A stretch of DNA of 64,000 nucleotides, taken from assembly GCA_005888745.1 (NCBI GenBank), contig VBBS01000027.1, positions 55,045-119,044 on the forward strand. The letters run 5' to 3'. Below the pieces are notes generated by a model that did not search any database, was not told the origin of the DNA, and saw nothing but the letters and a program-made list of their open reading frames with translations. Shown piece by piece: positions 41,957 to 64,000 of this stretch (positions are counted from its first letter, which is position 1; each line of letters starts with the position of its first letter). Source of the DNA: Candidatus Bathyarchaeota archaeon. Lineage in GTDB: Archaea; Thermoproteota; Bathyarchaeia; 40CM-2-53-6. The position numbers and the translations under genes were made by a program.

Positions 41957-41982
41957 CTAAGGAAACCTTTCGACATAGGGCT

Positions 41983-43081: not shown

Positions 43082-43170
43082 GTCTCGATCGAGAACCCCG
43101 TATACCTCAACATAGGTTTTGTGCCGGGAAAGCTAAAGTCTCTCTAGATCACGCTGTGAACTGACACATC

Positions 43171-43665: not shown

Positions 43666-43677
43666 GGTCGACAAAGA

Positions 43678-44562: not shown

Positions 44563-45019
44563 GAAAATCCCAACCCTTTATACAGAACATAAGCCGTGTC
44601 AACTCCACTGGTTGTTATTTGGTGTGTTAACTTCGTTCGTCTCCAGCCGTTACCTTCGAAGTATGACTCTTCACATGTTAGGCGGTCGTCGCATGAACCT
44701 GTCACGTTGGGATGAGGGGGATGACTCCGATCAGGTGACGGGTCAGAAATGGGATAGCCGGTTGGCTGGCCACCGTAAAATCCTTGCTTGGCAATCGGCC
44801 AAGTTACCACGCTATGGGCGTGAGGGGGCGGTTGAGGTTCGACCGTTCCCTGCCAAAAAGAGACTACATGTCTCTGAGGCGCAAGGGCTCGCAGGTGAAG
44901 CAGTGAAGAGGAACCCGCCGACGACGGTAATCCTCCGAGCAGATGAGAGCAAGTCTAGTCCCCCAGCAACGGAAGACTCGACAGAACCCAGAACACAACC
45001 CACAAACCATCGATGATGA

Positions 45020-45793: not shown

Positions 45794-45796
45794 TTC

Positions 45797-46591: not shown

Positions 46592-46658
46592 GACACGGTG
46601 TGTTTTCCAGGTTTCACGTTTAAGTAACAAGCTCCTCAATCGCGAGAGTTGAATAACC

Positions 46659-47660
46659 GTGCCGGGAAGGAACAAGAAACGGCCGAAATTGGACCTCAAC
46701 ATCTTCCCCGGAAACTGGACTGTCACGAATGACCGGATGTTCAAGGCCTTCGACCTGTCCTTCGCCCAGAACTGGAACCCTGCTACTTTTCCTTGGGATG
46801 AACTTGACCAGAAGAATTTCGACTCGAAGGAGAGAATAGCGCAAGCCTACTGGATGTCCAAACTGGCTCTCTTCGAGAAATCTGGAATTGGAGCCTTCGG
46901 CTTTGGGGCCGTAAGAGCCGCAGAACTGAACATGGAAGACCCCACGAAGAAGATGCTTGCCTCCATCACATACGATGAATGCCGGCATGACGAAGTCTGC
47001 CGAAGAGCCTGCGACAAGCTCTGTCCCAACTGGCCATACGGATACAAGCCACAATCAGATTTCGAATCAAGGGCCCTCCGAAACATCAAGGCACTCTACG
47101 ATGACGGCAGACGCTACTGGGAAGGATTCCTAAAGGCGTGGGAATATTTGCCGCCTGAGATTCTGTTCGCTGGCTTCTTTTTTGCGGAAATAGGCGCAGA
47201 AACGATCTTCAACGCGATGCGCCAGACCAGCAAACTCGGAATCTACCAACAAACCTTCCGAAATATTACACGAGACGAGACTCGCCATCTCGTTGCGACA
47301 ATGGCCCTGCTCCGGGCCATGGCCGAGAAGTTCTCGGAGGAACAGAAGATGACTATTACCCGGCAGATGAAGCAGGGCTTCATCTTTCTCTCACCCCTCC
47401 TCTACCAGCACAAGCCCGAGTTCTGGCATCTCCCCGCAGACTTTGACAAGGTCGACCAGGAGATGGAGGAAGCGGCCAGGGACGCGGGACTGGGAGTGCT
47501 CACCCTTGAAGAGAAGGTGAAGTTCTGGAAGGAAGCGATTGAGAAGAAACGGTCCGAGATAGAAGAGATGGGAATCAAGGTACCCGCCATCCCAGAGCTG
47601 GGAGTTGAGGGCGAAGAGGTTCAGGTTAAGAAGAACGAGACTATAGCCACGAGCTTCTAG
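46659..47660 (+). CDS. ferritin-like diiron-carboxylate oxygenase (PaaA/BoxB/acyl-desaturase-like)
   Basis: Two ExxH motifs (YDECRHDEV, TRDETRHLV) in a helical context. GTG start. Confidence 0.65.
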   Translation: MPGRNKKRPKLDLNIFPGNWTVTNDRMFKAFDLSFAQNWNPATFPWDELDQKNFDSKERIAQAYWMSKLALFEKSGIGAFGFGAVRAAELNMEDPTKKMLASITYDECRHDEVCRRACDKLCPNWPYGYKPQSDFESRALRNIKALYDDGRRYWEGFLKAWEYLPPEILFAGFFFAEIGAETIFNAMRQTSKLGIYQQTFRNITRDETRHLVATMALLRAMAEKFSEEQKMTITRQMKQGFIFLSPLLYQHKPEFWHLPADFDKVDQEMEEAARDAGLGVLTLEEKVKFWKEAIEKKRSEIEEMGIKVPAIPELGVEGEEVQVKKNETIATSF

Positions 47661-47667
47661 GAAGTGG

Positions 47668-47985
47668 TTGAAGATCACGAAGATCATAGTCCTGTTCGGA
47701 CAACCGAAAGACCCCGAACTATTCGATGAGCAATACTGGAAAGACCATGTTCCAATAGCGAAGGCGATGCCAGGTTTGAAGAAATACACAGTTCACAAGA
47801 TCGTTGGGGCACCACGAGGAGAACCGGCATACTACCAGGTTGTCGAACTGGAATTCGAGAATATGGACAGCCTGAAGAAAGCATTGGAAAGCCCGGCCGG
47901 ACGCGAATCAGGCCGGCACGGCGTAAAGATTGCTACTGGTGGCATAACTTTCCTTTACGCGGAATCAAGAGAAGCGATGCCGTAG
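47668..47985 (+). CDS. EthD/Dabb-family small alpha-beta barrel protein
   Basis: KIIVLFGQPKDPELFDEQYWKDHVPIA N-terminal pattern of the EthD family. TTG start. Confidence 0.55.
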   Translation: MKITKIIVLFGQPKDPELFDEQYWKDHVPIAKAMPGLKKYTVHKIVGAPRGEPAYYQVVELEFENMDSLKKALESPAGRESGRHGVKIATGGITFLYAESREAMP

Positions 47986-48077
47986 AACAACAACAGTCTA
48001 GCCCGGTTCCATCTGACATATTCCTCGGAAAACGTTCTTCTAATCAGACCCGTCAGTTCTAGGACAGGAGCGGGGAA

Positions 48078-49235
48078 GTCTTAGGCCGCATCGGAATCGT
48101 TGGAGTTGGACATTCAAAGTTCGGAAAAAGGAGCGACGCCTCCCTCCGAGAGCTAGCATTCGAAGCGTACAGTTCCGCCCTAGATGACGCCGACATCGAC
48201 TCTTCAAAAATAGACGGTTCAATAGTTTGCTCCGCCACTCACTACGACAAGCAACGATCGCCTGCAGGTGTTGTTGCGGAATATCTCGGACTCAATCCCC
48301 AACCAACATTCAACGTTGAGGCAGCCTGCGCCTCCAGCGCTGTTGGCCTTCGGACCGCGTGGGCGCTTGTCTCATCAAAACTTCATGATGTGGTGGCCGT
48401 TGTGGGGGTGCAGAAGATGACCGAACTCTCCTCGGAGGAGATCCAGGAGCTCATGGGCAGAGCAGGGGACGTCATGTGGGAGTCTCCCTTCGGAACAACA
48501 ATGCCCGCATACTACGCCTCCTATGCTAACGCCCACATGGCCAAGTACGGAACTACAGAGGAACAAATGGCGCTCGTGTCGGTGAAGAACCGAAAATACG
48601 GATCCAAGAATCCTAACGCCATGTTTCAAAAACCCATCCAATTGGAAGAGGTCCTAAAATCGCGAATGGTATCTTATCCTCTAAAACTATACGATTGCTG
48701 CGCCAATGCTGACGGGGCGGCATGTCTGCTCATTACTAGTGCCGAAAAAGCAAAGAAAATTTCTGATAGACCCGTATGGATCTCCGGGCTTGGCCTGGCT
48801 TCGAGTCCCATGTCGCTTGCTGGAAGAAAAGGTCCATTGACGAGTTTCGATGCCACAAGAAATGCGGCGAGAACGGCATACGAAATGGCCAATATCAAAC
48901 CACACGACGTACATGTGGCGGAGGTTCATGACTCTTTCTCGGTAACAGAAATCATCAATTATGAAGACCTCGGATTCGCACGACCTGGAAGGGGTGCTAA
49001 GCTTCTGGAAAACCAAGGCACGGAGCTCGGCGGGAGAATCCCCGTCAACATCGACGGAGGCTTGATTTCCAAAGGCCATCCAGTCGGAGCCACAGGCGCG
49101 TCCCAGATCTTCGCATTGGTCAAACAACTACGGGGGGAAGCGGGTAGCGTTCAGGTCGACGGCGCTAAGATTGGTCTCGCACAGAACATAGGGGGAATAG
49201 GAATGTACTGCTCCGTTACGATCTTGCGCTCATGA
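48078..49235 (+). CDS. thiolase (SCP-x-type acetyl-CoA C-acyltransferase)
   Basis: Thiolase N-terminal domain (GRIGIVGVGHSKFG...AACASSAVGL active Cys) is in frame with the called ORF 48390..49235. The frame opens at 48063, and there is no ATG, GTG or TTG before 48390. Start position uncertain. Confidence 0.75.
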   Translation, partial: VLGRIGIVGVGHSKFGKRSDASLRELAFEAYSSALDDADIDSSKIDGSIVCSATHYDKQRSPAGVVAEYLGLNPQPTFNVEAACASSAVGLRTAWALVSSKLHDVVAVVGVQKMTELSSEEIQELMGRAGDVMWESPFGTTMPAYYASYANAHMAKYGTTEEQMALVSVKNRKYGSKNPNAMFQKPIQLEEVLKSRMVSYPLKLYDCCANADGAACLLITSAEKAKKISDRPVWISGLGLASSPMSLAGRKGPLTSFDATRNAARTAYEMANIKPHDVHVAEVHDSFSVTEIINYEDLGFARPGRGAKLLENQGTELGGRIPVNIDGGLISKGHPVGATGASQIFALVKQLRGEAGSVQVDGAKIGLAQNIGGIGMYCSVTILRS

Positions 49236-49281
49236 GTACATTCTCCAAGCTCTATGACGAAAAGCGAGGGCGAATCTAGGA

Positions 49282-50208
49282 TTGCAGGTGGACATTCAAG
49301 AGTTGACCCCCATTCAAAGCTTCGGCAGAAGAATTCGAGCCTATGATAAAGCCACACGCCTCGCAAAGGAAGGTCGCCCTGTCACTGAAATCTCGAAAGA
49401 GACGGGAACGCCTGACGCTACCATCAGGGGATGGCTCGTAAACGGTCGAAAACCTTGGACCCGCTGCGAACTCTTCAAACCAACGTACTCTGATCAATTA
49501 ACATATGTTATCGGTGTTTACATGGGAGACGGCTCGATTTCCCGATGGAGAAATCGTTTTTTACTGCGATTAGATGTCAAAGACAAAGAATTCGCCGATA
49601 AGTTTTCTTCAACATGCGCACATGTTCTGGGTAGGAAACCATATTCTGTGAGGCATGTCAGGGATAGGGACACATACGAGACTATCATTTCAAACGCGTC
49701 TTTCTGCAAGTTCCTCAACCGAGGCCTCACCCACCTGGATCGGTATGTACGGGAGCATCCCTCTGGCTTTGTTAGAGGTTTAGCTGATAGCGATGAGTGC
49801 CCCACTGTGACAACAACAAAAAAGCGGGGCAAACCCTGGTTCTTCGTCCAAGTTGTAGTAGCAACATCCAAGAGCATACGCTTACTGAGCTATACTCGGA
49901 CGATCCTGAGGGAATGCCTCGGACTCAAAGCGACGCTAGTGTACAAAGGCAAGCCAAGACCCAGTGTGTTCAAGAACAAGTTGCTCCGTTCAAGAAAGAG
50001 GGTCTTTGACCTTAGGATATCGCGCTTTGGTGACGTGAAACGATTCTCCCGGGTTGTTGGTTTCGAATTGGCTCGGAAACAAGAGAAGCTTGCCGCTGCT
50101 ATCTTCGTCCGTGAAGGATTTGGTTCTGGTCAGGATGCGGTGAAAGAGTGGACCCGTCGCTGGGAGCATGGCACCACTGAGTGGATTCTCAAGAAAGGAG
50201 TGGACTAG
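49282..50208 (+). CDS. free-standing LAGLIDADG homing endonuclease with N-terminal HTH
   Basis: Motif 1 YVIGVYMGDGSI and motif 2 FVRGLADSDECP. TTG start. Lies between the thiolase and DUF35 genes. Confidence 0.8.
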   Translation: MQVDIQELTPIQSFGRRIRAYDKATRLAKEGRPVTEISKETGTPDATIRGWLVNGRKPWTRCELFKPTYSDQLTYVIGVYMGDGSISRWRNRFLLRLDVKDKEFADKFSSTCAHVLGRKPYSVRHVRDRDTYETIISNASFCKFLNRGLTHLDRYVREHPSGFVRGLADSDECPTVTTTKKRGKPWFFVQVVVATSKSIRLLSYTRTILRECLGLKATLVYKGKPRPSVFKNKLLRSRKRVFDLRISRFGDVKRFSRVVGFELARKQEKLAAAIFVREGFGSGQDAVKEWTRRWEHGTTEWILKKGVD

Positions 50209-50211
50209 GCA

Positions 50212-50620
50212 ATTGGGTTTTGAAAAGTTCGGGAGATTTGGTTATGTCTCCCAGACCAAGATCAACCCCTTGTTATCCTATCTGGAAAAGGGGCAGATTG
50301 CCGCGACCAAGTGCAAGAAGTGCGGGAGAACGTACTTTCCACCAAGAGCCGAGTGCCTGGACTGCCGCCACAGTACGATAGAATGGGTTGTAGTGGACGG
50401 GAGGAGCAAACTGATCACATTCACCCAGGTTTTCTTCGCACCACCCGCCTTTCAGCACGAAACCCCGTACATGCTAGGACTTGCGGAACTCACGAATGGG
50501 CTTCGCGTATTCGCGCCTGTCAGTCCTGCAGTGGAAAAGGAGCAACTCAAACCGGGCGTCGAGCTGACCTTGAAGGTTGCAAAAGGCTCACGTGACAACT
50601 TGTACTACTGGCTCGAATGA
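50212..50620 (+). CDS. DUF35 OB-fold/zinc-ribbon protein (thiolase partner)
   Basis: CKKCGRTYFPPRAECLDC ribbon plus OB-fold. The ORF track starts at ATG 50168 inside the endonuclease gene. TTG 50212 with an upstream AAAGGAG gives the typical ~135-aa DUF35 length. Confidence 0.7.
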
Positions 50621-50645
50621 AGAACATGTGAATCGTCTTTCGGAG

Positions 50646-51509
50646 CTATTCGAGCCGCGGTAATCGGAGATCATCGCCCGCTGTTCGATAGCCGAGCTTG
50701 AGGGCCAATGGTGGGCGTCTCTTGTGCTCTGACTTCAACCAGCGTTCTCGAACTCTCCTGACTAGTGCCAGCTTCAAGCTCGTTTCATCCACTATCTCTT
50801 CTGGTGTCATCCATCTTTCAAGGCCCCAAAGAATCCTGTCCAGCTTCTCATAGCTGAGGCCTAATTCTTTCTCCGCTGTCTGACCTGGCCATAGCTCAGG
50901 GCTAGAAGCTTTCACGCGAATCCTCTCCGGTATGTTCAAGTGTCTGGCCAGGTTCCGGACTGATGTCTTGTAGAGATCTGCGAGGGGGAGTATGTCGCAG
51001 GCTCCATCGCCAAACTTTGTGAAGTAGCCTAGCATAATCTCACTCTTATCGCCAGTTCCCACGACGAGACCGTGCTCCGTGTTAGCATAATAGTAGAGGA
51101 CTATTGCGCGAAGCCGCGCCTTGACGTTTCCCCAAGGAATTCCCTTCGCGCTCTTTGCGTCTAGAGCGTTTCGAGAGGTTTTGACAATGGGCGTAATGTC
51201 AATTAGCTTGAAGCCTATTCTATGCTTCAACGCCACAAGTCTCGCATCTTCCACGGCCTGATCATTCCTCGTCTCATTCTCCGGCAGAGTTATCCCAAGA
51301 ACCCGCCTGCCCCCGACCGCGCGGGCGCATAGCGCCGCGGCAACACTAGAATCTAGACCACCAGACATGCCAAGGACGAGGCAGCGTGCACCGGCTTCTT
51401 CCAGGTGAGTCGTAAGAAATCGTTCAAGCCGACTTACTGTTTCCTCTGGGTCCCGAATGGCGAAAGGATCCTCGCCGTATCTAGAGGACATGGTGTCCTC
51501 GACTTTCAA
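50646..51509 (-). CDS. nadE: NH3-dependent NAD+ synthetase
   Basis: PP-loop SGGLDSS motif. Confidence 0.9.
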   Translation of the reverse strand: MKVEDTMSSRYGEDPFAIRDPEETVSRLERFLTTHLEEAGARCLVLGMSGGLDSSVAAALCARAVGGRRVLGITLPENETRNDQAVEDARLVALKHRIGFKLIDITPIVKTSRNALDAKSAKGIPWGNVKARLRAIVLYYYANTEHGLVVGTGDKSEIMLGYFTKFGDGACDILPLADLYKTSVRNLARHLNIPERIRVKASSPELWPGQTAEKELGLSYEKLDRILWGLERWMTPEEIVDETSLKLALVRRVRERWLKSEHKRRPPLALKLGYRTAGDDLRLPRLE

Positions 51510-51537
51510 GCCAGTGTAATAAGCCGAGAGTCCTTGT

Positions 51538-52797
51538 CTAGCTGATGATGCGTGAGCCGCGATCTTCTGAGGCGAGGTTCTTGAACAATGGCAGCATCCT
51601 GTCCATCGTCACCCAGCGCTCACTCGCGAACGAAGCCTCGCTCGCCGCTTCCTGAACAATATTCTTCAAGTCCCGAGGCGTCACAACGTACTGCTCGCGA
51701 ACTGTAACCCCTCGTTCAGGGATCGATGCTTCGTACAATTGTTTCCTAGACCTAATCGTCCTCCAGATATCCGCGAAGGCCTCGTCAGTCAATCCTCCAC
51801 GATAGTTCGAGACTGACGGATCCAGCTCTACCTTGGAGCAGTAAAAGTCCAATAATCTCTTGACTTCATCCATCGACCTTGGAGGCGGAACATAGATGAT
51901 CCGCTTGATCCGATCCAGAAGCGCTTGATCTATGACACTGGGATAGTTGGTGGCGAATATCACGGACACGTTTCTGTTAACGTGGAAGCCTTCTCCGAGC
52001 TCTGTAAGAATCTGGTTAAGCATTCCCTGAACATCCCTTCCCGCGTCAGTCGTCGCTTCCATCCTCGCGCGTCCAATAGCATCAGCCTCATCTATGAAGA
52101 GAACTGTAGGAGCAGATTCTCGCGCGAGCTTGAAGACCTCCTTGACGTTCTTCGCAGACTCGCCCAGCCATTTTGACACTATCTCGTAGCTCTCTATTTT
52201 GAGGAAGCTTGTCTCCTGACCCCTCTGCCCGATCGTCCCCGCAACAGCCTTCGCCATGTACGTCTTCCCAGTCCCGGGTGGACCGAAGAGAAGTATCGAC
52301 CCGGCTTCTTCAAGCATCCGTGGGTCTCGGATGATCTGCTCGCGTCGAGCTCGGACCTGAGGATCAAGTATCCACTCGACCGCCTGCCGCAGGCTGTGCA
52401 GCTCTTTTTCGAGGCCAACGACGTCTTCATAGAAGACCTTGGGCGACTTTTCCACCTGATATTCTAAGAGTGAACGCTCGCGTAAACGGTCAATCACGTC
52501 GACAATGACTCCCTTCGTCGGAGAGAGAACCGCGTCCACGTCGGTGGACACTTTTTCCCTTATCTCGGGAGGGATGCTAACCTGAAACGCTTGGCCGCCT
52601 GATAGCCGAACCAGCGCCATATCCCCCTTGACATCTTCTATGGTCCCGATGGGACGCATACCTTGCTTGAGCTCTTCCATCAGGTTGTGGTATCTGCGGA
52701 GCTCGGTCTGGAGATACTCTATCTGTCTCTCCTTTCTTGTCAGTTCTCTTTCGAGGTCAAGTGCAGGAGGATATTCTGGCGAGTTCTGCTCGGCCAT
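51538..52797 (-). CDS. pan: PAN-like AAA+ ATPase (proteasome-activating nucleotidase family)
   Basis: N-terminal coiled coil, OB segment (IGTIEDVKGDMALVRLSGGQAFQV), Walker A GPPGTGKT, Walker B LFIDEAD. The C-terminus ends ...RIIS, with no HbYX. Confidence 0.8.
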   Translation of the reverse strand: MAEQNSPEYPPALDLERELTRKERQIEYLQTELRRYHNLMEELKQGMRPIGTIEDVKGDMALVRLSGGQAFQVSIPPEIREKVSTDVDAVLSPTKGVIVDVIDRLRERSLLEYQVEKSPKVFYEDVVGLEKELHSLRQAVEWILDPQVRARREQIIRDPRMLEEAGSILLFGPPGTGKTYMAKAVAGTIGQRGQETSFLKIESYEIVSKWLGESAKNVKEVFKLARESAPTVLFIDEADAIGRARMEATTDAGRDVQGMLNQILTELGEGFHVNRNVSVIFATNYPSVIDQALLDRIKRIIYVPPPRSMDEVKRLLDFYCSKVELDPSVSNYRGGLTDEAFADIWRTIRSRKQLYEASIPERGVTVREQYVVTPRDLKNIVQEAASEASFASERWVTMDRMLPLFKNLASEDRGSRIIS

Positions 52798-52990
52798 GCA
52801 GCTTCTGAACTATGATACCCGTTCGGGGAATAAATAGATATGGGCTTGCCCGAGCTGCCAACTTTGTGGTCTTTCACGTAGAGACCGAGTTCGAGACTCA
52901 ACAAAGTCCCGTTTTCAAGAACTCGAGAATGGCGAACAGTTCGAGAAAAAAGTGATTGATCTATTGCAATGAATCGAGAACGCGGTCCGG

Positions 52991-53758
52991 CTAGGTGCCA
53001 ACCATCGTGCCCATGCTCGGTCTCTTTCGCAAGAACCCGAACCGCGGAAGCTGAAGCTGAATCCCTATCCCGTTTATGATATCGAACCGTACGAGCCGCG
53101 GTATAATCTGGCGACGATCCATTTTCCTGACGAGCAAGTATCGACGTAGCACCTGGTGCTCTTCTACCATTCGCAGTTCTACCACGCCGTCCACGAGACT
53201 CTCGACCTTGTGAAACAGTTCCGGCTGGACACTGCCCGTTGAGAGGGTGGCTATCATTTTTCCTCCCACCTTCTTGACTTTCGCGGCAATACTCTGGATG
53301 AAACTGACGGCATGTTTCGGCTCAGCTTCGCTAAAGATCGGCATCAACGAGTCAAGTATGATGGTCACCTGGTGATTGCCCATCTTTTCCATTACGGAGG
53401 TCAAATGAATGCTGACATTGGTCAGGTCGAATGGTTGAGGAACCACTCCCTCGGTAACTCCAGCGGTTGCAGAGTAACAATCAATGATGCCAAGTTTGTT
53501 GAGCAACTGGTACTTCCTCGGGTCCCAGCCAAACTGGCTCATTCTCTCGAGAATGTTCGAAGGAAACGTGTCGTATGTGACTATGATACAGGGTCTCGAT
53601 CTCTGAAGCTCCTCGTAGAGGATCTGTTGTGCAAGAGTCGTCTTTCCACTACCTGGGTCGCCTGTGATCAGCACAGACGAGGAATCGGGCAGACTGCCCC
53701 CTATGAGCGCGTAAAATCCCTTGAAGGGCGCGGACCTAGTCTCCAGTTGTGAGTTCAC
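52991..53758 (-). CDS. KaiC-like / RecA-superfamily ATPase (single domain)
   Basis: Walker A ITGDPGSGKTT and KaiC-like layout. Confidence 0.8.
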   Translation of the reverse strand: MNSQLETRSAPFKGFYALIGGSLPDSSSVLITGDPGSGKTTLAQQILYEELQRSRPCIIVTYDTFPSNILERMSQFGWDPRKYQLLNKLGIIDCYSATAGVTEGVVPQPFDLTNVSIHLTSVMEKMGNHQVTIILDSLMPIFSEAEPKHAVSFIQSIAAKVKKVGGKMIATLSTGSVQPELFHKVESLVDGVVELRMVEEHQVLRRYLLVRKMDRRQIIPRLVRFDIINGIGIQLQLPRFGFLRKRPSMGTMVGT

Positions 53759-54336
53759 CTAAGGCAAGCTAAACGTCGAAAGCTACTATTTTCCAACAGG
53801 ACCGTTCAGGCGTATGAATGGGAATTGTAACCTATCCATCCATCAAGGAGTGACCGAGCTCGTGAGGCAGCGAGAAAGCGCCCCCGCAGAACGTCGAATA
53901 AGTCAATAATGCTGAAGTGTGTCGCAAGAGGGCACTGCGAAAGGCTCGGACTGGGAACTTCGACTAGTCTAGCTGGCCTTCAAAATGGCTCGTTTCGACC
54001 CTTAGACGGAAATGAAGCTCCAGCAGATTCATCAACGTCGCAATCTCGTCGAGGTCTTCGGCATTGTCCATCCGCCTGAGGGGTTTCCCCTTTCAAGCCA
54101 CCGACGCATACGATTTCCAATCAGCTGCCGCTAGCACAGGGATTATGGTTCTGCTTAGTTTTGGTTGGATAGTTGTTGTTGGCTTGTTGACTTAGCTTGC
54201 CTCCATCGTCATCAGGGAGAGTGACCTAACCCCTCTCAATCCGACGAAGAGTTAACAGTGCCTCATTTTCTCATGCATTGTTCTCTACCAACACGAAATT
54301 ACGTGAACGGAAGACAGAAAAAAGGAGATGATCGAA

Positions 54337-55353
54337 CTAAATCTTTGGAGGCGGTAGCGGCCTTCGCACCTTGATCGCCAAAAGAATTAGGAAAAGCGCC
54401 ACACCGAAGATCGTCAATAATACGATTGCTGAGACGACAGGAGCAGAAGAAGTACCACCCGCATTCAGTGTTACGGTGCTGACCGGAGCGACTGAAGCAT
54501 CTTCCGACCATGTTCCCTGGTCTTGACCCTGGTAGAGAACGTGCGCTGAATAGGGTCCGATTGGAATATCGCCGAGTTGAACTGTTCCCTGACTGTCGGT
54601 CGTGAAAGTTCTGCTTGTTGCGTTGGCGAAGGTGATTGTTACCGATGCGCCCTGAATCGGACTGTTCAGCTTGTCGACAACTTTGACGGACGCCGGGTAC
54701 GCGCTCACCCCGACAATGGCAGAGGCTGAACCCAAGGCGAGGTCAAGGGGTACTGGGGCAGGCAGAGCTCCTTGGTAGCCTTCCCAGGTCGCCGAAGTAA
54801 CCGTCCAAGAAGTCGCGGCCAGCCACTGGCCAGAATAGGACGAGGTTGTAACACTCGAACCTGCACTCGACAATACGACAGACGTTGGACTCGGAACGAG
54901 TGATTGCCCTGCAGCATCTTTGAAGGTCAACGTATACTGGAACTGCTTATCGAACTTGGCGGTGAAGGGTCCTCCATCCAATGATCCTGTGTAATTGTAG
55001 AGCATGATCGGAGTCTGCATCATCAGAGTGGGGGTCCACTGCAAACTGGAACGGACCCATTCGTTCCATACATAACGTGCTCCTGAGGACGCTGACAAGG
55101 TTGTGTTCAGAACGGTAAGAGTATGTCGACTATTGTTTGCGAATGAGAACGTGTGTGGTAGAGGATAAACTAAGCCAGTATTGTTGTCGAGCTCAACGTA
55201 CACTGTTCCATCCGCACCAGGCACGGTTGTGTCTGCTTTGAGAAGACAGCTTGTGATGCACCCGCTGGTCGCATGAACATCTGCCAGGAAGAGCGGGACA
55301 ACCATGATTGAAAGTGCCAGAATCAGCAATGAGGCACGAGCCGTCTTCCTCAA
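54337..55353 (-). CDS. cell-surface protein with signal peptide and C-terminal TM anchor
   Basis: N-terminal hydrophobic signal segment, Thr/Ser-rich beta-rich body, C-terminal TM followed by a basic tail. Confidence 0.55.
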   Translation of the reverse strand: MRKTARASLLILALSIMVVPLFLADVHATSGCITSCLLKADTTVPGADGTVYVELDNNTGLVYPLPHTFSFANNSRHTLTVLNTTLSASSGARYVWNEWVRSSLQWTPTLMMQTPIMLYNYTGSLDGGPFTAKFDKQFQYTLTFKDAAGQSLVPSPTSVVLSSAGSSVTTSSYSGQWLAATSWTVTSATWEGYQGALPAPVPLDLALGSASAIVGVSAYPASVKVVDKLNSPIQGASVTITFANATSRTFTTDSQGTVQLGDIPIGPYSAHVLYQGQDQGTWSEDASVAPVSTVTLNAGGTSSAPVVSAIVLLTIFGVALFLILLAIKVRRPLPPPKI

Positions 55354-55643
55354 CAGAGATGCTCACTAACGGTTGAGGAAATTGGAACTCTATGCCTTAG
55401 GACATCTTTAACCACAGTCAATCGGTGTAGGGAACAACCAGGCTTTTGAATTGAACTCATTGGGAAGCCGGTCTAAACGGTGCTCGCACGAGAAATGCAT
55501 AGTGCAATCCACATAGTGGAGCCGTTCTTGAGCCTCAACTCTTACATTGAGCATCCTTCTCCCGGATTCCCGGTCCTACGGATAGTGATGTTTCTCCGGA
55601 CATTCGAAGACTTCTAGCTCCGACCGGAATAGAAAGTTACATA

Positions 55644-56051
55644 TTGTGGCAGGCGTATGACAAGTCAGCTTTGGAACTTGGAGATCTCGAGGCAGCTGTC
55701 CTCGGGACAGTTGTTCGGCTTGGCAACGCTTCTGCCCGCCAAGTCGCTCAGGACCTGCATGCTACCCGTGGACTCGCATACACTACAATCAGTACAACGC
55801 TGGATCGTCTTTACAGGAAGGGGATCTTGGCCCGTGATGAGGCTGTTGGCAGAGGAGGGTCCAGATACGTGTATCGCCTTCACTCCGAGGACAAGGTCAA
55901 GGGTCGAGTCGTGAAAGGATTCGTTGACAGGTTGCTCACAGCCTTTGGACCCAGCATTATCTCGACGTTGCATGACTACATGGATGAGATTCCAAAGGAG
56001 GACCTGAAGAAGCTGGAAGAAAGAGTTCGTAGGGAGTCCGGGCAACGATAA
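55644..56051 (+). CDS. BlaI/MecI/CopY-family winged-helix repressor
   Basis: ARQVAQDL...LAYTTISTTLDRLYRKGILAR matches the penicillinase-repressor family pattern. TTG start. Confidence 0.7.
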   Translation: MWQAYDKSALELGDLEAAVLGTVVRLGNASARQVAQDLHATRGLAYTTISTTLDRLYRKGILARDEAVGRGGSRYVYRLHSEDKVKGRVVKGFVDRLLTAFGPSIISTLHDYMDEIPKEDLKKLEERVRRESGQR

Positions 56052-56956
56052 GCCTGGAACTGTACTCGCTCTACTTCCTTTCGACAGCTACCCTGGGAAT
56101 TGTAGCAACAGTTCTGATAGTCCAAATTGCTTCCTATATCGCCTACCGATCAAGTGTGGGAAATCCCTCTCGCAGATCCAGCCTCCTATATCCGATACTA
56201 TCCTCTTCTGTTTTCTTCTGGTCGTTTCTTGGAACTAGCCTTGTAGTGTGCACGCTCTTCCTCAATATGTACGAGTGGCAATCACAACGAGTGATAAGAC
56301 TCGTGTTTGGAAGTTCGCTGGTAGCATCTATCGGAATCTCCTCTCTCATGTCCCTTATTGCTCGAAGATACGCGTTCCCTAGAATGCTTGGGGGAATGAT
56401 CGCAGGAACATTCTCGAGCTCTAGACTGAGCGAAACATGTGCGGAGCTATGCAACAAGATGGGTATCAAAGGAGTCGACCTTAGAGAAGCTAGGGTGGGA
56501 AACGCGTTTTCTTTGGACAATGGGAGTTGGAAGGTCGTTGCCGTATCTCCCGAGCTGGTGAGTTCCATGTCACCGGCGGAAGTCGAGGCGGTCATTGCTC
56601 ACGAGATCTCTCACTTGAAGAACAAGGATTCTCGAGAGAAGGGACTTGCAAGGCTGGCTAAACTGGCCTTCGTTTTTGACCCCGTGCTGCATCTTGTTGA
56701 GGCTGCGGTCCACAGAGAACGTGAACTCCTCGCCGACCAGTTGTCAGTGGAATACACTCAGAAGCCGTTGGCACTCGCATCAGCTTTGCTGAAGGTTCAT
56801 TCAGCCTTCCACGCCCCATTGCCTGGGCCTGGAGCCGGATTGTTTGTAGGTCGAAAGACAAGAGGTCTCTTGAGCAGGTATCCCGACCTTGATCGAAGAG
56901 TCCAGCTGCTAATTGACATGGACCGAGAGATGAAGACTCAGACGATCCCCGCCTGA
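56045..56956 (+). CDS. M48/M56-family zinc metallopeptidase (HtpX/BlaR1-like), membrane
   Basis: HEISH (HExxH) and downstream ELLAD (ExxAD) zinc-ligand motifs. The N-terminal TM helix (ISLELYSLYFLSTATLGIVATVLIVQIASYIAY) lies upstream of the called GTG 56156, in frame back to ACG 56045, which overlaps the blaI-like stop (ACGATAA). Confidence 0.7.
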   Translation, partial: TISLELYSLYFLSTATLGIVATVLIVQIASYIAYRSSVGNPSRRSSLLYPILSSSVFFWSFLGTSLVVCTLFLNMYEWQSQRVIRLVFGSSLVASIGISSLMSLIARRYAFPRMLGGMIAGTFSSSRLSETCAELCNKMGIKGVDLREARVGNAFSLDNGSWKVVAVSPELVSSMSPAEVEAVIAHEISHLKNKDSREKGLARLAKLAFVFDPVLHLVEAAVHRERELLADQLSVEYTQKPLALASALLKVHSAFHAPLPGPGAGLFVGRKTRGLLSRYPDLDRRVQLLIDMDREMKTQTIPA

Positions 56957-57025
56957 AGGAACGCTCTTTTATAGCCTCACCAGGTTTGGATTGCGGACTT
57001 GACAGTTCAAATTCAGAAATACAAA

Positions 57026-58431
57026 ATGCTGATCGGGGGAGAGTGGAAGGACAGCGCAAATGGCGCTGTTTCATCAGTTCTTGATCCTTCAAACAACGTA
57101 CAAGACAGGACGCGAAAGCTGCAGTCGTGAGTGCGAAGATCGCGCTGGAGTCGGCCGGCTGGGTCGACATTGATCCCAGCAAGAGAGGGCGTCTCCTAAC
57201 TAAGCTCACAACTCTGGTCAGGGAGAATTCAGAGCAGCTGGCAAAGCTTGAAACCATGAGTGAGGGGAAGACTCTCCGAGAGTCTAAGGGTGATGTTGCC
57301 TGGGCGGCCAGGGCGTTCGAGTACTGGGCAGGACTGGCGGACAAGGTTGAAGGAGAAACCATACCTGTTCCGCCGAGACGTCTGAACTACACTCTTCGTG
57401 AGCCGCTAGGCGTAACGGTCCATATTGTTCCTTGGAATTATCCGATCGCGCTTGCTGCTAGAAGTTTGGCACCGGCAATTGCAGCAGGGAATACTGTTGT
57501 CGTGAAACCGTCTGAGATTACTCCTCTTACAGCGATTATGCTGGGAGATCTAGCGCTTAAGGCCGGCATCCCCAAAGGTGTTATCAACGTTGTAACTGGA
57601 TCAGGTGCTGAAGTAGGCGAAGCACTTGTGTCGGACCCGCGAGTGGACGGGATAGTTTTCACAGGGTCCGCTGAGACAGGAACGCAGGTGATGGAGTCAG
57701 CCGCGAAAAATGTTACAAGGGTACTTCTGGAGTTAGGCGGTAAGAACCCGCATATTGTCTTCCCTGACGCCGACTTGGCGAAGGCCGCTAAGAGCGTGAA
57801 GGAAGGCATTTTCACCAATGCTGGACAAATGTGCTGGGCCGGATCTAGGGCATTCATTCACGAGAGCATATACGATGATTTCGTAAAGGACCTCGTCGCC
57901 AAGACCCGAGCGATAAAGGTCGGGCCTGGAAGAGATGATACCAGCGAGATGGGACCCTTAGCCTCAAAGGCTCGGCAAGACGTGGTTCTCGGGTTTGTCA
58001 AGGACGGCCTCGAAGAAGGGGCAAGTCTTCTCTGCGGGGGGAAGAAACCATCTGACCCAGGACTGCAGAAGGGAAATTTCGTCGAGCCCACCATTTTCGA
58101 GAACGTCAACGGGAAGATGAAAATCGGGTGCGACGAGATTTTCGGACCTGTTCTGGGCCTTACCCAGTTCAAGACTCTCGACGAGGTTGTTGCTATGGCC
58201 AATGAGACAGATTATGGACTATACGGGGGAGTCTGGACGAGCAATTTGAAAGTCGCTCATGAACTCGCTGTTCGTCTCCAGGTCGGTGGACTAGCCGTGA
58301 ACGAGTATTTGGTGACCTTTCCGCAGACCCCGTTCGGCGGCTACAAGGACAGCGGAATAGGACATGAAAACGGCATACGCTCGTTAGAATTCTACACACG
58401 AACCAAGAATGTCTCGATAAACCTTTCCTAG
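57026..58431 (+). CDS. aldehyde dehydrogenase, interrupted by a -1 frame change near 57085-57127
   Basis: Main body 57127..58431 (catalytic Cys region AGQMCWAGSR, ELGGKNP). The conserved N-terminus MLIGGEWKDSANGAVSSVLDPSNN is encoded from ATG 57026 in the frame offset by +1 and stops at 57130. The body frame opens at 57085. Confidence 0.75.
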
Positions 58432-58767
58432 ACACTATCGCCAGCTCCCTACAATTATCCTCTGAAGAGGCATGCGGAGAGCATTGCCACGAAAAATAGC
58501 CCATTTTCAGACCCCTGATATCGAGTCTGGGGCCCTTCTCTACACTGACTAGGAAAATCGTTCTTGACACCGCATTTAGAACCGCAGGAACCATCATGTC
58601 GTTTAGGCCAAATGCCAAGCTCTGAATCGCGAGACTCGCCCGGAATCAGTGCCAGACACGGAGCGACCTCTCAGGAGCGTGTCTTACACAGAGCATCTCG
58701 TGACGCCAGAGTGTTTGAGAGCGCGAAATCCACTGCCGAGCTTGGGAACAGTGGAGGTTCTTTCGAA

Positions 58768-59694
58768 CTAGGTAAGCTCGTCCAGCAACGGCGTAATATC
58801 ACGGTTGTAAATATCCTGCTCGACAAAGGGCTTTTCTTTCAGGGCGGGCATTCGAAGAGCCAGCTGGTCCTCGAAGGTAGGAACCTCCATCTTGAAGAAA
58901 ACCCCGATCGGTATCTTGTCGCCCCACTCGAAAGACTTCACCAGGGCATTTCCCTTCTTTGTGTTAACCTCGTCCGTCGTGGGATCGGCAACCGTACCAT
59001 TGTACCCTGAATCCTCCAGCTTGTAGAGCCTCGGTGCCTTGACCGGAAGATCTTCGCCACCATACCATTCTTTCGTGTTGATGTCGTTATAGGTCGGGCA
59101 TGTTTGCAGAACATCTACGAACGCGCTTCCCCGATGTTCTATTGCCGCTCGAAGGGTTTGCTTCAAGTGGCGAACGTCAAGAGCATAACTCCGCGCAACG
59201 AACGTATAGCCCGAAGCGACTGCCATAGCGATCGGATTCACACGCTCAATGATCGCGGGGGCAGGCATCGATTTCGTTTTCACACCCTTCGGCAGGGTCG
59301 GAGATGCCTGACCTTTTGTCAAGCCGTAGACTCCATTATCGTAGAGCACGTATGTGAAATCCAGGTTCCTTCGACCAGTATTGACGAAGTGGCCTGCTCC
59401 TATTCCCAGTCCGTCTCCGTCGCCACCAACAGCGACAACGGTCAGTCCTGGGTTAGAAAGACGGGCACCAGTAGCGATTGGAAGGACACGGCCATGGAGA
59501 GTATGGAACCCGTACGCGTTAACAAAATGAGGTGTCTTGCCTGAGCATCCGATTCCCGAGAAGATCGCGACCCTGTGGGGTTCAAGCTGCATTTCTAGAA
59601 GGGTCATCTGAATCGCGTTGACGATTCCGAAGTCTCCGCAACCAGGGCACCAGTCGTTGTGAACCTGTGTCCGGTAGGTCTTTAGCTCAAGCAT
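58768..59694 (-). CDS. korB: 2-oxoacid:ferredoxin oxidoreductase beta subunit (TPP-binding)
   Basis: CPGCGDFGI motif and TPP-binding GDG region. Confidence 0.9.
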   Translation of the reverse strand: MLELKTYRTQVHNDWCPGCGDFGIVNAIQMTLLEMQLEPHRVAIFSGIGCSGKTPHFVNAYGFHTLHGRVLPIATGARLSNPGLTVVAVGGDGDGLGIGAGHFVNTGRRNLDFTYVLYDNGVYGLTKGQASPTLPKGVKTKSMPAPAIIERVNPIAMAVASGYTFVARSYALDVRHLKQTLRAAIEHRGSAFVDVLQTCPTYNDINTKEWYGGEDLPVKAPRLYKLEDSGYNGTVADPTTDEVNTKKGNALVKSFEWGDKIPIGVFFKMEVPTFEDQLALRMPALKEKPFVEQDIYNRDITPLLDELT

Positions 59695-61536
59695 GAGATA
59701 CGGTTACCTCTTTGATTCCGTTCTTTATTATGTCTTTGACACCCTCGTAGATTTCGTTCTGGGAAAACGGTCTTCCGTCGAACTTTACAATAGTATTGTC
59801 CATTGCAATACCGGTTTTCTCACGGATCAACCCTGCCATCTGTGCGGAGTAATTGTTTTCGATCGCGATCTTCCGCCGGGCCGAACCAAGTGCCTGCTGA
59901 ACGAAGCTTGTTGGGAACGGGCTAACGTATCGCACCTGTAGAAAGTTTGTTTCTATCCCGTCGCTCTTGAGGTCTTCCATGCCGTCGAGTATCGCTCCCT
60001 TCGATGACCCCCAGCCAACGAGTGTAATCAGAGCCGATGTTGGTCCGTGCAAGGTTGCCTTCTTTGAGTCCGGTATTACTTGTCCAGCAAGCTCGATCTT
60101 TCTCATTCTCTTCCTCATCATCTTGATCCGGATATCCGGCGCCTCCGTGATATGACCATACTCGTCATGCTCATCTCCAGTTGTCCAGAAGATCCCCCCT
60201 TTCTGACCAGGAATTGCTCGGGGGGAAATTCCCAGTTCTGTCCAACGGTAGCGTCGATGCTTATGGCGAGATCTGATTCTCGAACCAAGTCTCCCCGATC
60301 GACCTTCAGGTTGTCGCCGTTGAAAGGAGGAATATCTTGGTAGGTGCTCGCCAGGAACTTGTCGGTCAGAAGTATGACGGGCACTTGGTAGCGTTCCGCG
60401 TAGTTGAACGCGTCGAACGTGTCGTAGTAAGTTTCGACCACATCTCCGGGTGCAATAATTATCCGAGGAAATTCTCCATGGGCAGCGTGAAGAGCAAATC
60501 TTAGGTCTGCTTGCTCCGTCCGAGTCGGCAGCCCAGTTGCAGGACCTGCCCGCTGATATAGCACGACAACTGGTCCAGGGGCTTCAGTTATCCCGGCCCA
60601 CCCCAAGCCTTCGGCCATAAGAGAAAAGCCCGGTCCAGATGTAGAGGTAGAAGATCTGAGACCAGCGTGAGCCGCACCGGTGGCCATGTTGATCGCGGAA
60701 ATCTCGTCCTCTGCTTGTACGACTATCATATTGTAGTCCTTCTGGTGGGACTCCAAGTACTCGCTCTCGTCCGTTGCTGGTGTAATGGGATAGTAGGTTT
60801 GGAATCCACATCCGGCCTTGAGTTTCGCGATAGCCACGGCTTGTACACCTCTGATCATCATTCGCTTTCCAGACAGCGGTTGCTTTCGCAGCTTTATCGG
60901 AAACGCATCTTCGCCGAAACCCGCCTTTGCATAATCGTATCCGCGTTTCGCGGCGCTGACGTTTAGGTCGCCGAGAGCTGCCTTGCGTCCGGTGAACCCT
61001 TCTCTAATGGCCTCGGTTGCGAGGTCAAAGTCGTAATCGGCGAGGCCAAGGGAAGCCCCTAGAGCAATCGTGTTGACCATAACCTGGTACTTGCTCAGTT
61101 CCTTGTCCTTTCCAAACTCCTTCAGCGCCTCGACAAGGAGATCCATGTAGGGGATCGGAAAGAGTTTGATATCATCACGCCCGAAAGAGTCAGGTGACAG
61201 GTTCAAGCTGCGATCGTAGATTATTCCACCTCCAGGGCTGACCTCGTGTCTATGCCCTCGATGGGTAGGACGAAGCTTGTTCATGTCGCCGAAGATTGTT
61301 TCCCGGTCGAGGGCTACGAGTAAGTCTACCCAGTCCACGTGGGATCTGGGCGCCTTTGACTCTACTCTGAGCCTGTAGTAGCTATGTTCGCCCTTGATGT
61401 TGGAGTGATACTCGATGTTGGCAAATATGTGAAGTCCTCCACGAATGCATGCTTTTGCAAAGTTCTCTGCAACCGAGTTGATCCCGCTGCCTTGAGGACC
61501 GCCTATCATCCAGGTGAAACTGTTGGTTACTGTCAA
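59687..61536 (-). CDS. korA: 2-oxoacid:ferredoxin oxidoreductase fused gamma-alpha subunit, split by a -1 frame change near 60250-60280
   Basis: Called as 60118..61536 (472 aa) plus 59687..60121 (144 aa). The downstream frame, extended upstream, reads RYRWTELGISPRAIPGQKGGIFWTTGDEHDEYGHITEAPDIRIKMMRKRMRKIE, the conserved alpha-subunit segment. The upstream ORF's last ~45 aa are out-of-frame junk. Confidence 0.8.
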
Positions 61537-61630
61537 ATTCCCGCACCATTAGGGGATCTGCTAGCATAGAAAATTCTTTGCCCCGTCGAGGTCTTGGGTC
61601 CTAAGGCGGGGAACTTGCCTTGGTCTGAAG

Positions 61631-62407
61631 TTGGGTGTCAAGCAGGGCGCCTCAAAACAAGCGCTATATACGTATAGTCCAGCGAGAATTCGTTTCGCCA
61701 TGAATCAGATGGGACGAGTGGCACTGGCTGAGGCTTATGGGACCTTTCTTCTCACTATGATCGGCCCGGGGACAATCATGGCGGTCACGTTGCTCGATTT
61801 CGGGGGTACGGGTGCCGGACTCGGCTTTATCGGTCTCGCCCATGGGGTAGCCCTCCTGTTGGCGGTGTACACCATAGGCCGCGTGACGGGCGCCCACATC
61901 AATCCCGCGGTCACAATTGCTCATTGGGCTACGCGGAGGGTAGAGACAAAAAAAGTAGCACCGTACATTCTTGGACAGCTTGCAGGCGCATCCGTCGCGG
62001 GCTTCATCCAGCTCGCATTGTGGACGTCAAGCAACAGCCCAATACTTGTGCAGGCCGCTCGCTCGACCTTCTTTGGAGATACCATTCCAAACCTTGAATT
62101 CGGCATCGGTGCCGTACTTCTAGCTGAGGTGACTGGTACTGCCATCCTCGTCTTCACCGTGTTCGGGGCTACGGACAAGGCTGCTGACCCAAGCCGGGCA
62201 GGAGTCACGATAGGATTCGCTCTGGCAGCCATGGTCTGGATGTTCGGCCCGATTTCTGGGGCATCTCTTAACCCAGCTAGAACATGGGGGCCGACACTGG
62301 CTTCATCAATTTTCAGCCTGACCCCTCTGGGAAACTTATGGATCTATGTCGTTGGACCGGTCTTAGGAGGTTTGCTTGGAGCTTTCCTGTACGACGCGTT
62401 TAGGTAG
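61631..62407 (+). CDS. aqpM: aquaporin / MIP-family channel
   Basis: Two NPA boxes (HINPAVT, SLNPART). Six TM segments. Confidence 0.9.
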   Translation: MGVKQGASKQALYTYSPARIRFAMNQMGRVALAEAYGTFLLTMIGPGTIMAVTLLDFGGTGAGLGFIGLAHGVALLLAVYTIGRVTGAHINPAVTIAHWATRRVETKKVAPYILGQLAGASVAGFIQLALWTSSNSPILVQAARSTFFGDTIPNLEFGIGAVLLAEVTGTAILVFTVFGATDKAADPSRAGVTIGFALAAMVWMFGPISGASLNPARTWGPTLASSIFSLTPLGNLWIYVVGPVLGGLLGAFLYDAFR

Positions 62408-62488
62408 GGCCTAGACGAGGAAATGAGTCAAAGATTCTTCAGGAATATTTCTGATTGAACACAGTCTGATGTTGAGGCGGTGGGTGGC

Positions 62489-62827
62489 TCAAGCCTTCGT
62501 CTGAGCTGGCGTCGCCGGCTGGACCGCCGGAGGAGTGTAGCCGGGGTTGACTCTCTGGTTGATCTCGTTGGCGAGAGCATGTCCGTGGAGAATAACCGTG
62601 ACCTTCTTTACACCTTCGAGCTTGGACGTAAGTGTCTTTATGCTCATTCCAATGTCTTCCGCGAAGATCGGGGGACAGAACGGTGCAGTAAGATGATATT
62701 TGATGAAAATCTCTCCATTCTCTTGGATGTTTATCTCGTCAACTAGGTGCATCTCTGTGATCGGAAGTCCGATCTCAGGATCCACAACCTTCTCAAGCTC
62801 CTTTTCGACTAGGTCTACGGTGATCAT
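62489..62827 (-). CDS. DUF59 (MIP18/SufT/PaaD-like) Fe-S assembly family protein
   Basis: VVDPEIGLPITEMHLV and cysteine-containing APFCPP motif. Confidence 0.7.
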   Translation of the reverse strand: MITVDLVEKELEKVVDPEIGLPITEMHLVDEINIQENGEIFIKYHLTAPFCPPIFAEDIGMSIKTLTSKLEGVKKVTVILHGHALANEINQRVNPGYTPPAVQPATPAQTKA

Positions 62828-63006
62828 GCTCTTCGAGTAGATGAGTGTGACCGTTTTGATTTATAGGTTCCTTGGAGGTGTAAAAACGGATGTTCGTGTG
62901 GGGTAAGCTGATAATGGGCGACTTCGCATCGAAGCGAAGACTCTTCGGATTATGACATAAGTTATGTTTAAATAGATTTTGCGAACTATTAGTCAACGTC
63001 GTCTTA

Positions 63007-63456
63007 TTGATCATTCCTTGTGAAGTTGCAGCGAAATCCGTCATCCCCGCACTACGGGCAATGATAGCTCGAGAGCTGATAGAAGACTATGGAATGAAAC
63101 AGGAGCTCGTCGCAGAACGACTGGGAATTACACAAGCAGCAGTGAGCAAATACAGACACCAGGTTCGCGGAGAAGCAATAGATTTGGGAGCATCATCAGA
63201 GGTCCGTCAGATGAGTAGAGATATAGCCTCCACTCTTGCAAGCAACCCGAGCCCGCTGGAAGTGTCAAGAAAGCTGTGTCAAGCCTGCACAGATATCCGG
63301 GCTTTAGGCCTCATGTGCGAGACCTGCAGGAAGGTCGACCCTGGGTGGGATGTCGAGCATTGCACGATTTGCTTTGGACATCACAGCTGCGCAGAGATTG
63401 TGAGTATCGAAACCAGCAGCATTGCAAAGTACAGAAAGATACCGATTCGACAATAA
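63007..63456 (+). CDS. HTH transcriptional regulator with C-terminal Cys-rich metal-binding domain
   Basis: HTH (ELVAERLGITQAAVSKYR), then CQAC...CETC...CTIC...C. Confidence 0.55.
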   Translation: MIIPCEVAAKSVIPALRAMIARELIEDYGMKQELVAERLGITQAAVSKYRHQVRGEAIDLGASSEVRQMSRDIASTLASNPSPLEVSRKLCQACTDIRALGLMCETCRKVDPGWDVEHCTICFGHHSCAEIVSIETSSIAKYRKIPIRQ

Positions 63457-63799
63457 CTCAGTTCCTACAAGTTTGACCCTAAGTCGCGGCCTAGTAATTC
63501 TCCTGGTTTTTCCAACCGAGTCGACGCATTACCGACCTGAGTTATGACTAGAGCTCTTGAATTCTCAACGATCGGTTCCAAGTTCTAGTACTTGATGATT
63601 CTTCCACTGGAGGACTTCCGATAAGGACCTCTCTTTCGACGCCGAGCCTTATCCTTGGACTCTCTTCTTCGAATTATCTTGTCTTCAACATTCAGAGACG
63701 TTTCCCTCCTACAGTCCTATCCTCGCAGGCTGCGCAAGTCAATTCTTAAATGCCTAATAAGAAAAGCTTACGTGCATCCCAGGGGACACGCGCAACACT

Positions 63800-64000
63800 T
63801 TGAGACTAGGCGTGGGCAAGTCAAAGCAAAAGGATCCGCCTCCGGGAGCAAACGTTCAGCCTTCAGCAACCAGCCGGCTGAGAGAGCTGTGCGGTGGGGA
63901 CGAGGAACTCTACATCGCCATGTCGCACCTGATGTTCCTGGATCCGAAGAAAATCACAATGCCTTTCGAAGGGGTGCTTAAAGAGGCTCAAGACTACGAG
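63800..64000 (+). CDS. partial CDS running off the window end (hypothetical)
   Basis: Open frame from 63761 to the window edge (..RLRELCGGDEELYIAMSHLMFLDPKKITMPFEGVLKEAQDYE). The start is uncertain: candidates are TTG 63800, GTG 63812, ACG 63770 and ACG 63788. Confidence 0.25.
   Translation, partial: MRLGVGKSKQKDPPPGANVQPSATSRLRELCGGDEELYIAMSHLMFLDPKKITMPFEGVLKEAQDYE

Follow-up and report, generated by a model that had tools for sequence, protein, structure and literature searches.

A frameshifted 2-oxoacid:ferredoxin oxidoreductase alpha-subunit gene in a soil Bathyarchaeota contig, very probably an artefact of assembly

The stretch of DNA analysed here (the window, 64,000 nucleotides of a contig from a Candidatus Bathyarchaeota archaeon) carries on its minus strand the genes for the alpha and beta subunits of a 2-oxoacid:ferredoxin oxidoreductase (OFOR), and on its plus strand a gene for an aldehyde dehydrogenase (ALDH). 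Both the alpha gene and the ALDH gene are interrupted by a change of reading frame, and the two sites lie 3.2 kb apart (Table 1). The beta gene is intact and its start overlaps the end of the alpha gene by 8 nt. Its product contains PF02775 and PF12367, scores 389.5 bits against TIGR02177 (cut-off 261.9), and shows four cysteines and the GDGD TPP-binding motif in its sequence.

Table 1. Features of the OFOR locus and of the neighbouring ALDH gene, in positions of the window
Feature	Position	Strand	Evidence or remark
Aldehyde dehydrogenase gene, with the same kind of lesion	57026..58431	plus	tblastn, DNA alignment
OFOR beta subunit, TPP_enzyme_C and PFO_beta_C, 308 aa, intact	58768..59694	minus	profiles
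Whole OFOR alpha-subunit gene, POR - POR_N - PFOR_II	59687..61536	minus	translation, PDB alignment, homologs, profiles
Upstream alpha ORF, 472 aa	61536..60118	minus	ORF list
Downstream alpha ORF, 144 aa	60121..59687	minus	overlaps the 472-aa ORF by 4 nt
Truly coding part of the 472-aa frame, ending ..VDRGDLVRESDLAIS	60259..61536	minus	PDB alignment, homologs
Junction, 7 nt missing (CCGACTA, equivalently ACCGACT)	60257..60259	minus	alignment, comparison of 6 assemblies, repair test
Out-of-frame read-through, last 47 codons of the 472-aa ORF	60258..60118	minus	
-1-frame continuation of alpha, from RRYRWTELGISPRAIPGQKGGIFWTTGDEHDEYGH.. to the stop	59687..60256	minus	translation, PDB alignment, PFOR_II

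Translation of the alpha gene in three frames (minus strand, 61536..59687) shows the relation between its two ORFs. Frame 0, which is that of the 472-aa ORF, has the C-terminal end ..QNWEFPPEQFLVRKGGSSGQLEMSMTSMVISRRRRISGSR, with ..VDRGDLVRESDLAISIDATVGQNWEFPP...ISGSR as its last part. Over the same DNA the -1 frame (frame 2) is open, reads ..RRYRWTELGISPRAIPGQKGGIFWTTGDEHDEYGHITEAPDIRIKMMRKRMRKIE.. and then runs into the 144-aa ORF. It is this frame that encodes the conserved RYRWTELGISPR...TTGDEHDEYGH segment, as the first-pass annotation, made from the letters alone, had remarked. The 144-aa ORF lies within this -1-frame continuation, and its start is an internal Met-Met (MMRKRMRK).

Each frame was aligned with the alpha subunit of the OFOR from Sulfurisphaera (Sulfolobus) tokodaii (PDB 5b48/5b46). 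Frame 0 is matched up to ..RGDLVRESDLA, at chain residue 441 (E value of 2.5e-83), and the -1 frame is matched from ..RRYRWTELGISPR, at chain residues 441 to 443, to the C terminus (E value of 3e-44). These alignments indicate, far beyond chance, that the two frames are consecutive parts of one protein; a comparison with a Sulfolobus-type alpha subunit had been proposed in the first-pass annotation. The locus thus holds one alpha gene with a net -1 split, and the switch, which had been placed near 60250 to 60280, is located at 60257 to 60259 by the DNA alignment with a related strain (L001) and by the repair of the gene described below. The upstream frame had been considered good through ..DRGDLVRES; it is credible there, but it extends for five residues more, through ..ESDLAIS.

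The DNA of this 97.9%-identical strain, which encodes the best protein match (homolog P0001), aligns with the window over 3087 nt at 97.9% identity with a single gap of 7 nt, and P0001 reads ..DLAISTDYRRYRWTELG.. across the site. The homologs from the same strain and from the 97.9%-identical strain read DLAISTDYRRYRW at the junction. Intact copies of the gene present an imperfect 6-nt direct repeat with a 7-nt period (AAGC-ACCGAC-T-ATCGAC-GC), of which the window has the second copy only, so that AAGC ACCGACT ATCGACGC in the intact gene corresponds to AAGC ATCGACGC in the window, where positions 60250-60265 read AAGCATCGACGC. A one-base slip or homopolymer error was also considered, and is ruled out by the 7-nt gap in non-repetitive sequence in the alignment to L001. 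The description of the lesion as a -1 change is therefore right for the net frame but not for the event itself, which is a 7-nt deficit and no single-base change. When CCGACTA is put back, the alpha gene is identical in 1830 of 1830 nt to the intact 609-aa gene of the same-strain contig L024, with no difference in these 1830 nt apart from the gap.

The repaired alpha subunit of 618 aa contains PF01558 (residues 16-201), PF01855 (residues 237-477) and PF17147 (residues 506-590), and carries the YPITP motif (YYPITPATDE) as well as the TGDEHxExGH motif. Its domain architecture, together with that of the beta subunit, is the same as in S. tokodaii StOFOR1/2 (PDB 5B46, 5B47, 5B48), to which it aligns end to end when both frames of the window are used. 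Unlike StOFOR, the alpha gene of the window is interrupted by the 7-nt deficit, and the repaired protein passes the cut-off of TIGR03710 (618.5 bits against 482.75) but not that of NF041170, the archaeal OFOR alpha equivalog (680.4 bits against 800). On sequence it belongs unambiguously to the family, without certification as an equivalog of the Sulfolobus-type enzyme. In the unrepaired sequence the POR_N match breaks off at position 196 of the 231 in the profile, where there is no domain border, while PFOR_II is still matched by Pfam in the 144-aa piece alone. The start codon used in relatives corresponds either to the ATG at 61509, which gives 609 aa, or to the TTG at 61536, which gives 618 aa. 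From its sequence, the real gene is predicted to encode an undamaged and ordinary alpha subunit (609-618 aa) of a two-subunit (alpha-beta) OFOR.

The ALDH gene is shifted in the same direction, in agreement with the first-pass annotation. In a tblastn comparison with the intact 476-aa ALDH of the syntenic locus L004, frame +2 covers residues 1-24 (57026-57097) and frame +1 covers residues 34-476 (57100-58428). DNA alignment reveals a deficit of 25 nt, AGGTTGTCGCCGAGGTCCCACGAGC, between 57098 and 57099, which is a net change of -1, and the window reads AACAACGTACAAG at 57090-57105. L024 and L036 carry the gene undamaged, with 485 aa in L024. The sequence flanking the 25-nt deficit shows no clean overlap by which a mis-join could be explained mechanically. 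A T at 57128, which gives Val where L025 and L036 have Glu, was considered as a contig-end error and dropped, because the same-strain contig L024 has the T too.

Among the approximately 20 genes of the window that are syntenic with L004 (48.2-63.5 kb), only OFOR alpha and ALDH are frameshifted. Overlapping same-strand ORF pairs spot-checked with Pfam across the window yielded no further split genes. The pairs 4842/5606, 13726/14249, 21408/21487, 23101/24288, 49282/50168 and 41264/41932 and a cluster at 17.2-18.4 kb were all found to be separate genes, and the families present in the checked pairs are Meth_synt_2/MTHFR, TraB, SIS, SHMT/ribosomal protein S11, LAGLIDADG/ChsH2 and ribosomal protein S8e/SRP19.

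In a scan of GTDB with one genome per species, in which the loci come mostly from soil MAGs of the Angelo Coast Range Reserve (BA_x) and from "Crenarchaeota 13_1_40CM", all 17 of the 17 Bathyarchaeia loci gave one undivided tblastn match over residues 1-609, save for contig-end truncations. This bears out the expectation that related genomes would present a single ORF of about 610 aa. The top protein matches belong to Bathyarchaeia, at 92-99% identity. Those of full length have 609-660 aa, and two are shorter, with 552 and 567 aa. The deletion junction, searched as a 21-mer, had no match in JGI metagenome contigs, and neither did a pattern accepting either allele. Exact-product look-ups retrieved the 463-aa truncated alpha product from no public gene catalogue, and likewise gave no record for the 779-aa PolB and the 413-aa SHMT of the window.

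Several independent assemblies of the same strain were recovered by exact-product look-ups. A MEGAHIT contig of 32.9 kb (L024/L028, ENA ERZ27285877) differs from window positions 54334-64000 by 4 SNPs and two gaps only, of 7 and 25 nt, and both its alpha gene (609 aa) and its ALDH gene are undamaged. Both sites are also intact in a metaSPAdes scaffold from a sister sample (L036, SAMN08902861), and the OFOR site is intact in L001. In contrast, the metaSPAdes scaffold_1424 (L022/L025, SAMN08902853), with an identity of 99.97% to the window, has a scaffold gap of 49 Ns at the OFOR site (..AAGCACCGAC[N49]TCGACGCTACC..). The left flank of this gap has the intact-type ACCGAC that is missing in the window, and the first base of its right flank is the base where the window resumes. 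A MEGAHIT contig from a further assembly (L026, ERZ27315208) stops at the last base of that left flank, with ..AAGCACCGAC. Scaffold_1424 is the only other contig that gives the 144-aa product, the called products being 481 aa and 144 aa. The first-pass annotation had held that the same two-ORF split in orthologues, with a functional start for the C-terminal piece, would speak against a broken gene, and this apparent case comes from the 49-N gap and not from a real two-gene layout.

In the ALDH gene, the first base of scaffold_1424 lies 13 nt ahead of the deletion, and the 25 nt are present in this scaffold. Another scaffold of the same assembly, scaffold_26 (87 kb), aligns collinearly with the window in the two stretches compared (1-14841 and 41538-57098), and past 57098 it continues with the 5' end of another strain's ALDH and then with a GC-rich bacterial greB-like chimera. 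The window is therefore equivalent to a scaffold_26-like part followed by a scaffold_1424-like part, in which the two weak points were closed with no Ns and some bases were dropped. Strain heterogeneity is present in these soils, with identities of 97.9-99.97%.

The beta subunit of the window and an aquaporin correspond to the NCBI proteins TMI09194.1 and TMI09195.1, respectively, both of which belong to a contig of 133,960 bp recorded under "MAG: Candidatus Bathyarchaeota archaeon". The two accessions follow one another directly, yet the alpha gene is situated between the two genes, which suggests that alpha has no NCBI protein record, being treated as a pseudogene or left unannotated. The window comes from a soil MAG in NCBI for which assembly by IDBA-UD, followed by an automated step of scaffold correction, is probable; this pipeline is known to produce local errors. 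The link is made through the TMI protein accessions and the sister MAGs of the study in question. In that study 60 samples were individually assembled with IDBA-UD 1.1.1, followed by automated correction of scaffolding errors (Diamond et al. 2019, PMC6784897).

The 7-nt and 25-nt deficits are located exactly at assembly break points and are absent from all other same-strain assemblies that read through, which argues for an artefact and against biology. The frameshift in OFOR alpha is accordingly regarded, with a probability of about 0.88, as a scaffold-join or local assembly artefact of the deposited MAG and no property of the organism.

The local sequence suggests why assemblies end here. The block TGGACAGAACTGGGAATTTCCCC.. 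just downstream of the OFOR junction is nearly invariant DNA across co-occurring Bathyarchaeia, and the linker upstream of it (..DLAISTDY..) is variable. Inside this block the chimeric contig L037 passes from one species to another. Upstream of the block, at a distance of 29 nt, lies the start of contig L021, which belongs to a different species (BA_25), and at 21 nt lies the end of L026; the N-gap of L025 falls in the same stretch of about 30 nt. This arrangement, at which short-read assembly graphs tangle and break, accounts for breaks that are determined by the sequence and occur in several samples and with several assemblers. An intact/deletion bubble in the graph was also considered as the cause of the breaks, and was rejected because the unitig ends that it predicts (..AAGCA and ATCGACGC..) differ from those observed (..ACCGAC and TCGACGC..).

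Scaffolders for short reads join two ends when these overlap briefly and imperfectly or when the gap is estimated to be negative, and a join of this kind between the observed ends would give exactly AAGCA + TCGACGC. In the assembly of the window, two contig ends were probably joined without a gap, with the imperfect repeat ACCGAC / ATCGAC either taken as an overlap or trimmed. This join would lose 7 nt and place the remainder of alpha in the -1 frame, and 25 nt of ALDH would likewise be lost where two scaffolds meet. The step at fault would be the IDBA-UD scaffolder or the automated error-correction script, and reads that support either deletion junction are presumably absent.

Alternatively, the deletions could be real and recent: a sub-population would have lost 7 bp of alpha, by slippage at ACCGAC/ATCGAC, and 25 bp of ALDH, leaving fresh pseudogenes whose allele was followed by the assembler. 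The 6-nt imperfect direct repeat with its 7-nt period lies exactly at the site and is the context expected for replication slippage, the strain heterogeneity of these soils provides a background for such an allele, and the apparent lack of an NCBI accession for alpha indicates that the lesion is in the deposited sequence. Nonetheless, this explanation is unlikely. At least four same-species assemblies span the sites, and neither deletion is found in any other assembly. The boundaries of the OFOR deletion coincide to the base with the N-gap and the contig end of other assemblies, and the second deletion, in ALDH, falls on a scaffold boundary as well. Moreover, two frameshifting indels against 4 SNPs in 9.7 kb are implausible under neutral divergence. 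In the metaSPAdes assembly the flanking sequence has the same backbone as the window but the intact allele, with no path through the deletion allele, and such a path, if present, would have been read through by metaSPAdes. Neither of the two signs expected of a pseudogene was seen: the 1830 nt of alpha show no additional changes that would indicate further degeneration, and the allele was not recovered from independent samples in the gene catalogues or the JGI contigs.

A minority deletion allele may exist alongside the intact one. If the split were real, it would represent a strain-level pseudogene of modest interest. It is improbable that OFOR alpha and its neighbour ALDH were knocked out together, and very recently, in a single sub-population of a soil Bathyarchaeon, with the intact allele co-existing; were it true, the window would offer a snapshot of the strain-level loss of a 2-oxoacid/aldehyde oxidation module.

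It is highly improbable that the two ORFs represent a functional split, in which a 472-aa product (domains III and I) and a 144-aa product (domain II) are made separately and assemble with the beta subunit. OFOR-family enzymes do occur with their domains distributed over two to four separate subunits, and the 144-aa ORF has an ATG that overlaps the upstream stop (ATGA, 60118-60121) and matches PFOR_II. However, the break falls inside POR_N and not between domains, and about 45 conserved residues, including RYRWTELGISPR..TTGDEHDEYGH, are exchanged for 47 out-of-frame residues, both of which make a functional two-polypeptide enzyme unlikely. Furthermore, the arrangement is present in no orthologue, its sole apparent example being the N-gap artefact of scaffold_1424, and the gene is intact in the same strain.

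Programmed -1 frameshifting is known in Archaea, for example in fucA1 (alpha-fucosidase) of Saccharolobus solfataricus, and the alpha gene resembles this case in having two overlapping ORFs that are -1 related and jointly encode one protein. The -1 frame is, moreover, free of stops in the roughly 300 nt that precede the junction, and two adjacent genes need the same -1 correction. The RNA downstream of the shift site has a minimum free energy of -37.2 kcal/mol (z = -1.74), with 11 of 200 shuffled sequences folding as well. Restoration of a full-length alpha by programmed ribosomal frameshifting or transcriptional slippage is nevertheless hardly credible, because GCCATAAGCATCGACGCTACC, the only stretch where a shift spares the conserved residues, has no run of three identical bases, which makes an X XXY YYZ slippery heptamer impossible, because a shift there would still leave the protein without residues present in homologs, and because, unlike in fucA1, the two-frame layout is conserved in no relative and the same strain has the unsplit gene.

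The artefact reading also has precedent, as local assembly errors have been described in short-read MAGs assembled with IDBA-UD (Chen et al. 2020, Genome Res, PMC7111523). The lesions of the window resemble those errors in being small, in lacking support elsewhere, in lying at assembly ends or Ns, and in giving a wrong protein-coding gene. As an artefact, the frameshift serves as a quality flag, in that two or more small deletions without support are present at scaffold joins of the deposited MAG contig. Each of them makes an intact gene look like a pseudogene, so that metabolic reconstructions and pseudogene counts would wrongly score both OFOR alpha and ALDH as lost. The comparison also provides a cheap diagnostic: a frameshift should be put down to an assembly error when it coincides precisely with a point at which other assemblies of that population stop or have Ns inserted. 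Elsewhere in the window, between 14.8 and 41.5 kb, a net length difference of 8 nt was observed with respect to scaffold_26.

The aldehyde dehydrogenase (ALDH) gene of the window lacks 25 nt (AGGTTGTCGCCGAGGTCCCACGAGC) at its internal junction, and these nucleotides are present in the same-strain contigs L024 (MEGAHIT, ERZ27285877) and L036 (metaSPAdes, sister sample SAMN08902861), as well as in scaffold_1424 (metaSPAdes, SAMN08902853). In the window, residues 1 to 24 of the gene are read in frame +2 and the remainder in frame +1. The junction coincides with the border of two metaSPAdes scaffolds, and the deficit is therefore of the same artefact class as the lesion in the gene for the alpha subunit of 2-oxoacid:ferredoxin oxidoreductase (OFOR).

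Coordinates of the features discussed (window positions unless a contig is named)
Feature	Position	Strand	Detail
KaiC-like ATPase ORF	1651-2997	-	GGC deficit at 2417
Free-standing LAGLIDADG_3 ORF	41264-41956	+	
Free-standing LAGLIDADG_3 ORF	49282-50208	+	
Aldehyde dehydrogenase gene	57026-58431	+	junction 57098/57099
Intein-containing Mrp/ParA-type ATPase	L024 12132-14453		773 aa; Intein_splicing

Chimeric or broken sequences also occur in other assemblies. Scaffold_26 (L029, ERZ28573795), from the same assembly as scaffold_1424, is chimeric at its record end (positions 1 to 560), where positions 438 to 560 are an ALDH 5' end from another strain (89 to 91% identical) and positions 1 to 437 consist of bacterial DNA that is rich in GC and codes for a GreB-like protein. 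The MEGAHIT contig L037 (ERZ27315208 k141_469121) is chimeric in region 1 to 170: its initial ∼170 nt match a species like BA_23, a co-occurring member of the Bathyarchaeia, and the remainder matches the strain of the window, with the switch of species lying within the conserved OFOR block TGGACAGAACTGGG... In the MAG BA_25, another species assembled with IDBA-UD, the alpha gene is divided between two contigs (L019 and L021; VBBT01000120.1 and VBBT01000084.1), with residues 1 to 383 at the end of one and 417 to 609 at the start of another, and this break adjoins the same conserved block.

Several further length differences separate the window from other contigs. The window, L029, and L030 share an intergenic stretch of ∼104 nt (54230 to 54336) that is missing in the same-strain L024/L028. 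The difference is either a genuine indel polymorphism or the result of L024 having collapsed at this place, and the stretch also holds a cluster of several SNPs between the window and L030. The KaiC-like ATPase has an in-frame deficit of 3 nt (GGGT[GGC]GGGT) relative to contigs L042, L045, and L046, giving a product of 448 versus 449 amino acids. Scaffold_26 at record positions 44653 to 71358 is longer by a net 8 nt than window 14841 to 41538, a difference behind which there may be additional minor errors of joining or genuine indels.

Three independent contigs, L028 (ERZ27285877), L030 (ERZ27315208), and L031 (JGI 3300006794), end exactly at window position 42009, which suggests the boundary of a repeat or of a strain-variable element. 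This position lies directly beyond the first of the two free-standing LAGLIDADG_3 ORFs in the window. Shortly past the window end, same-strain contigs carry a Mrp/ParA-type ATPase with an intein.
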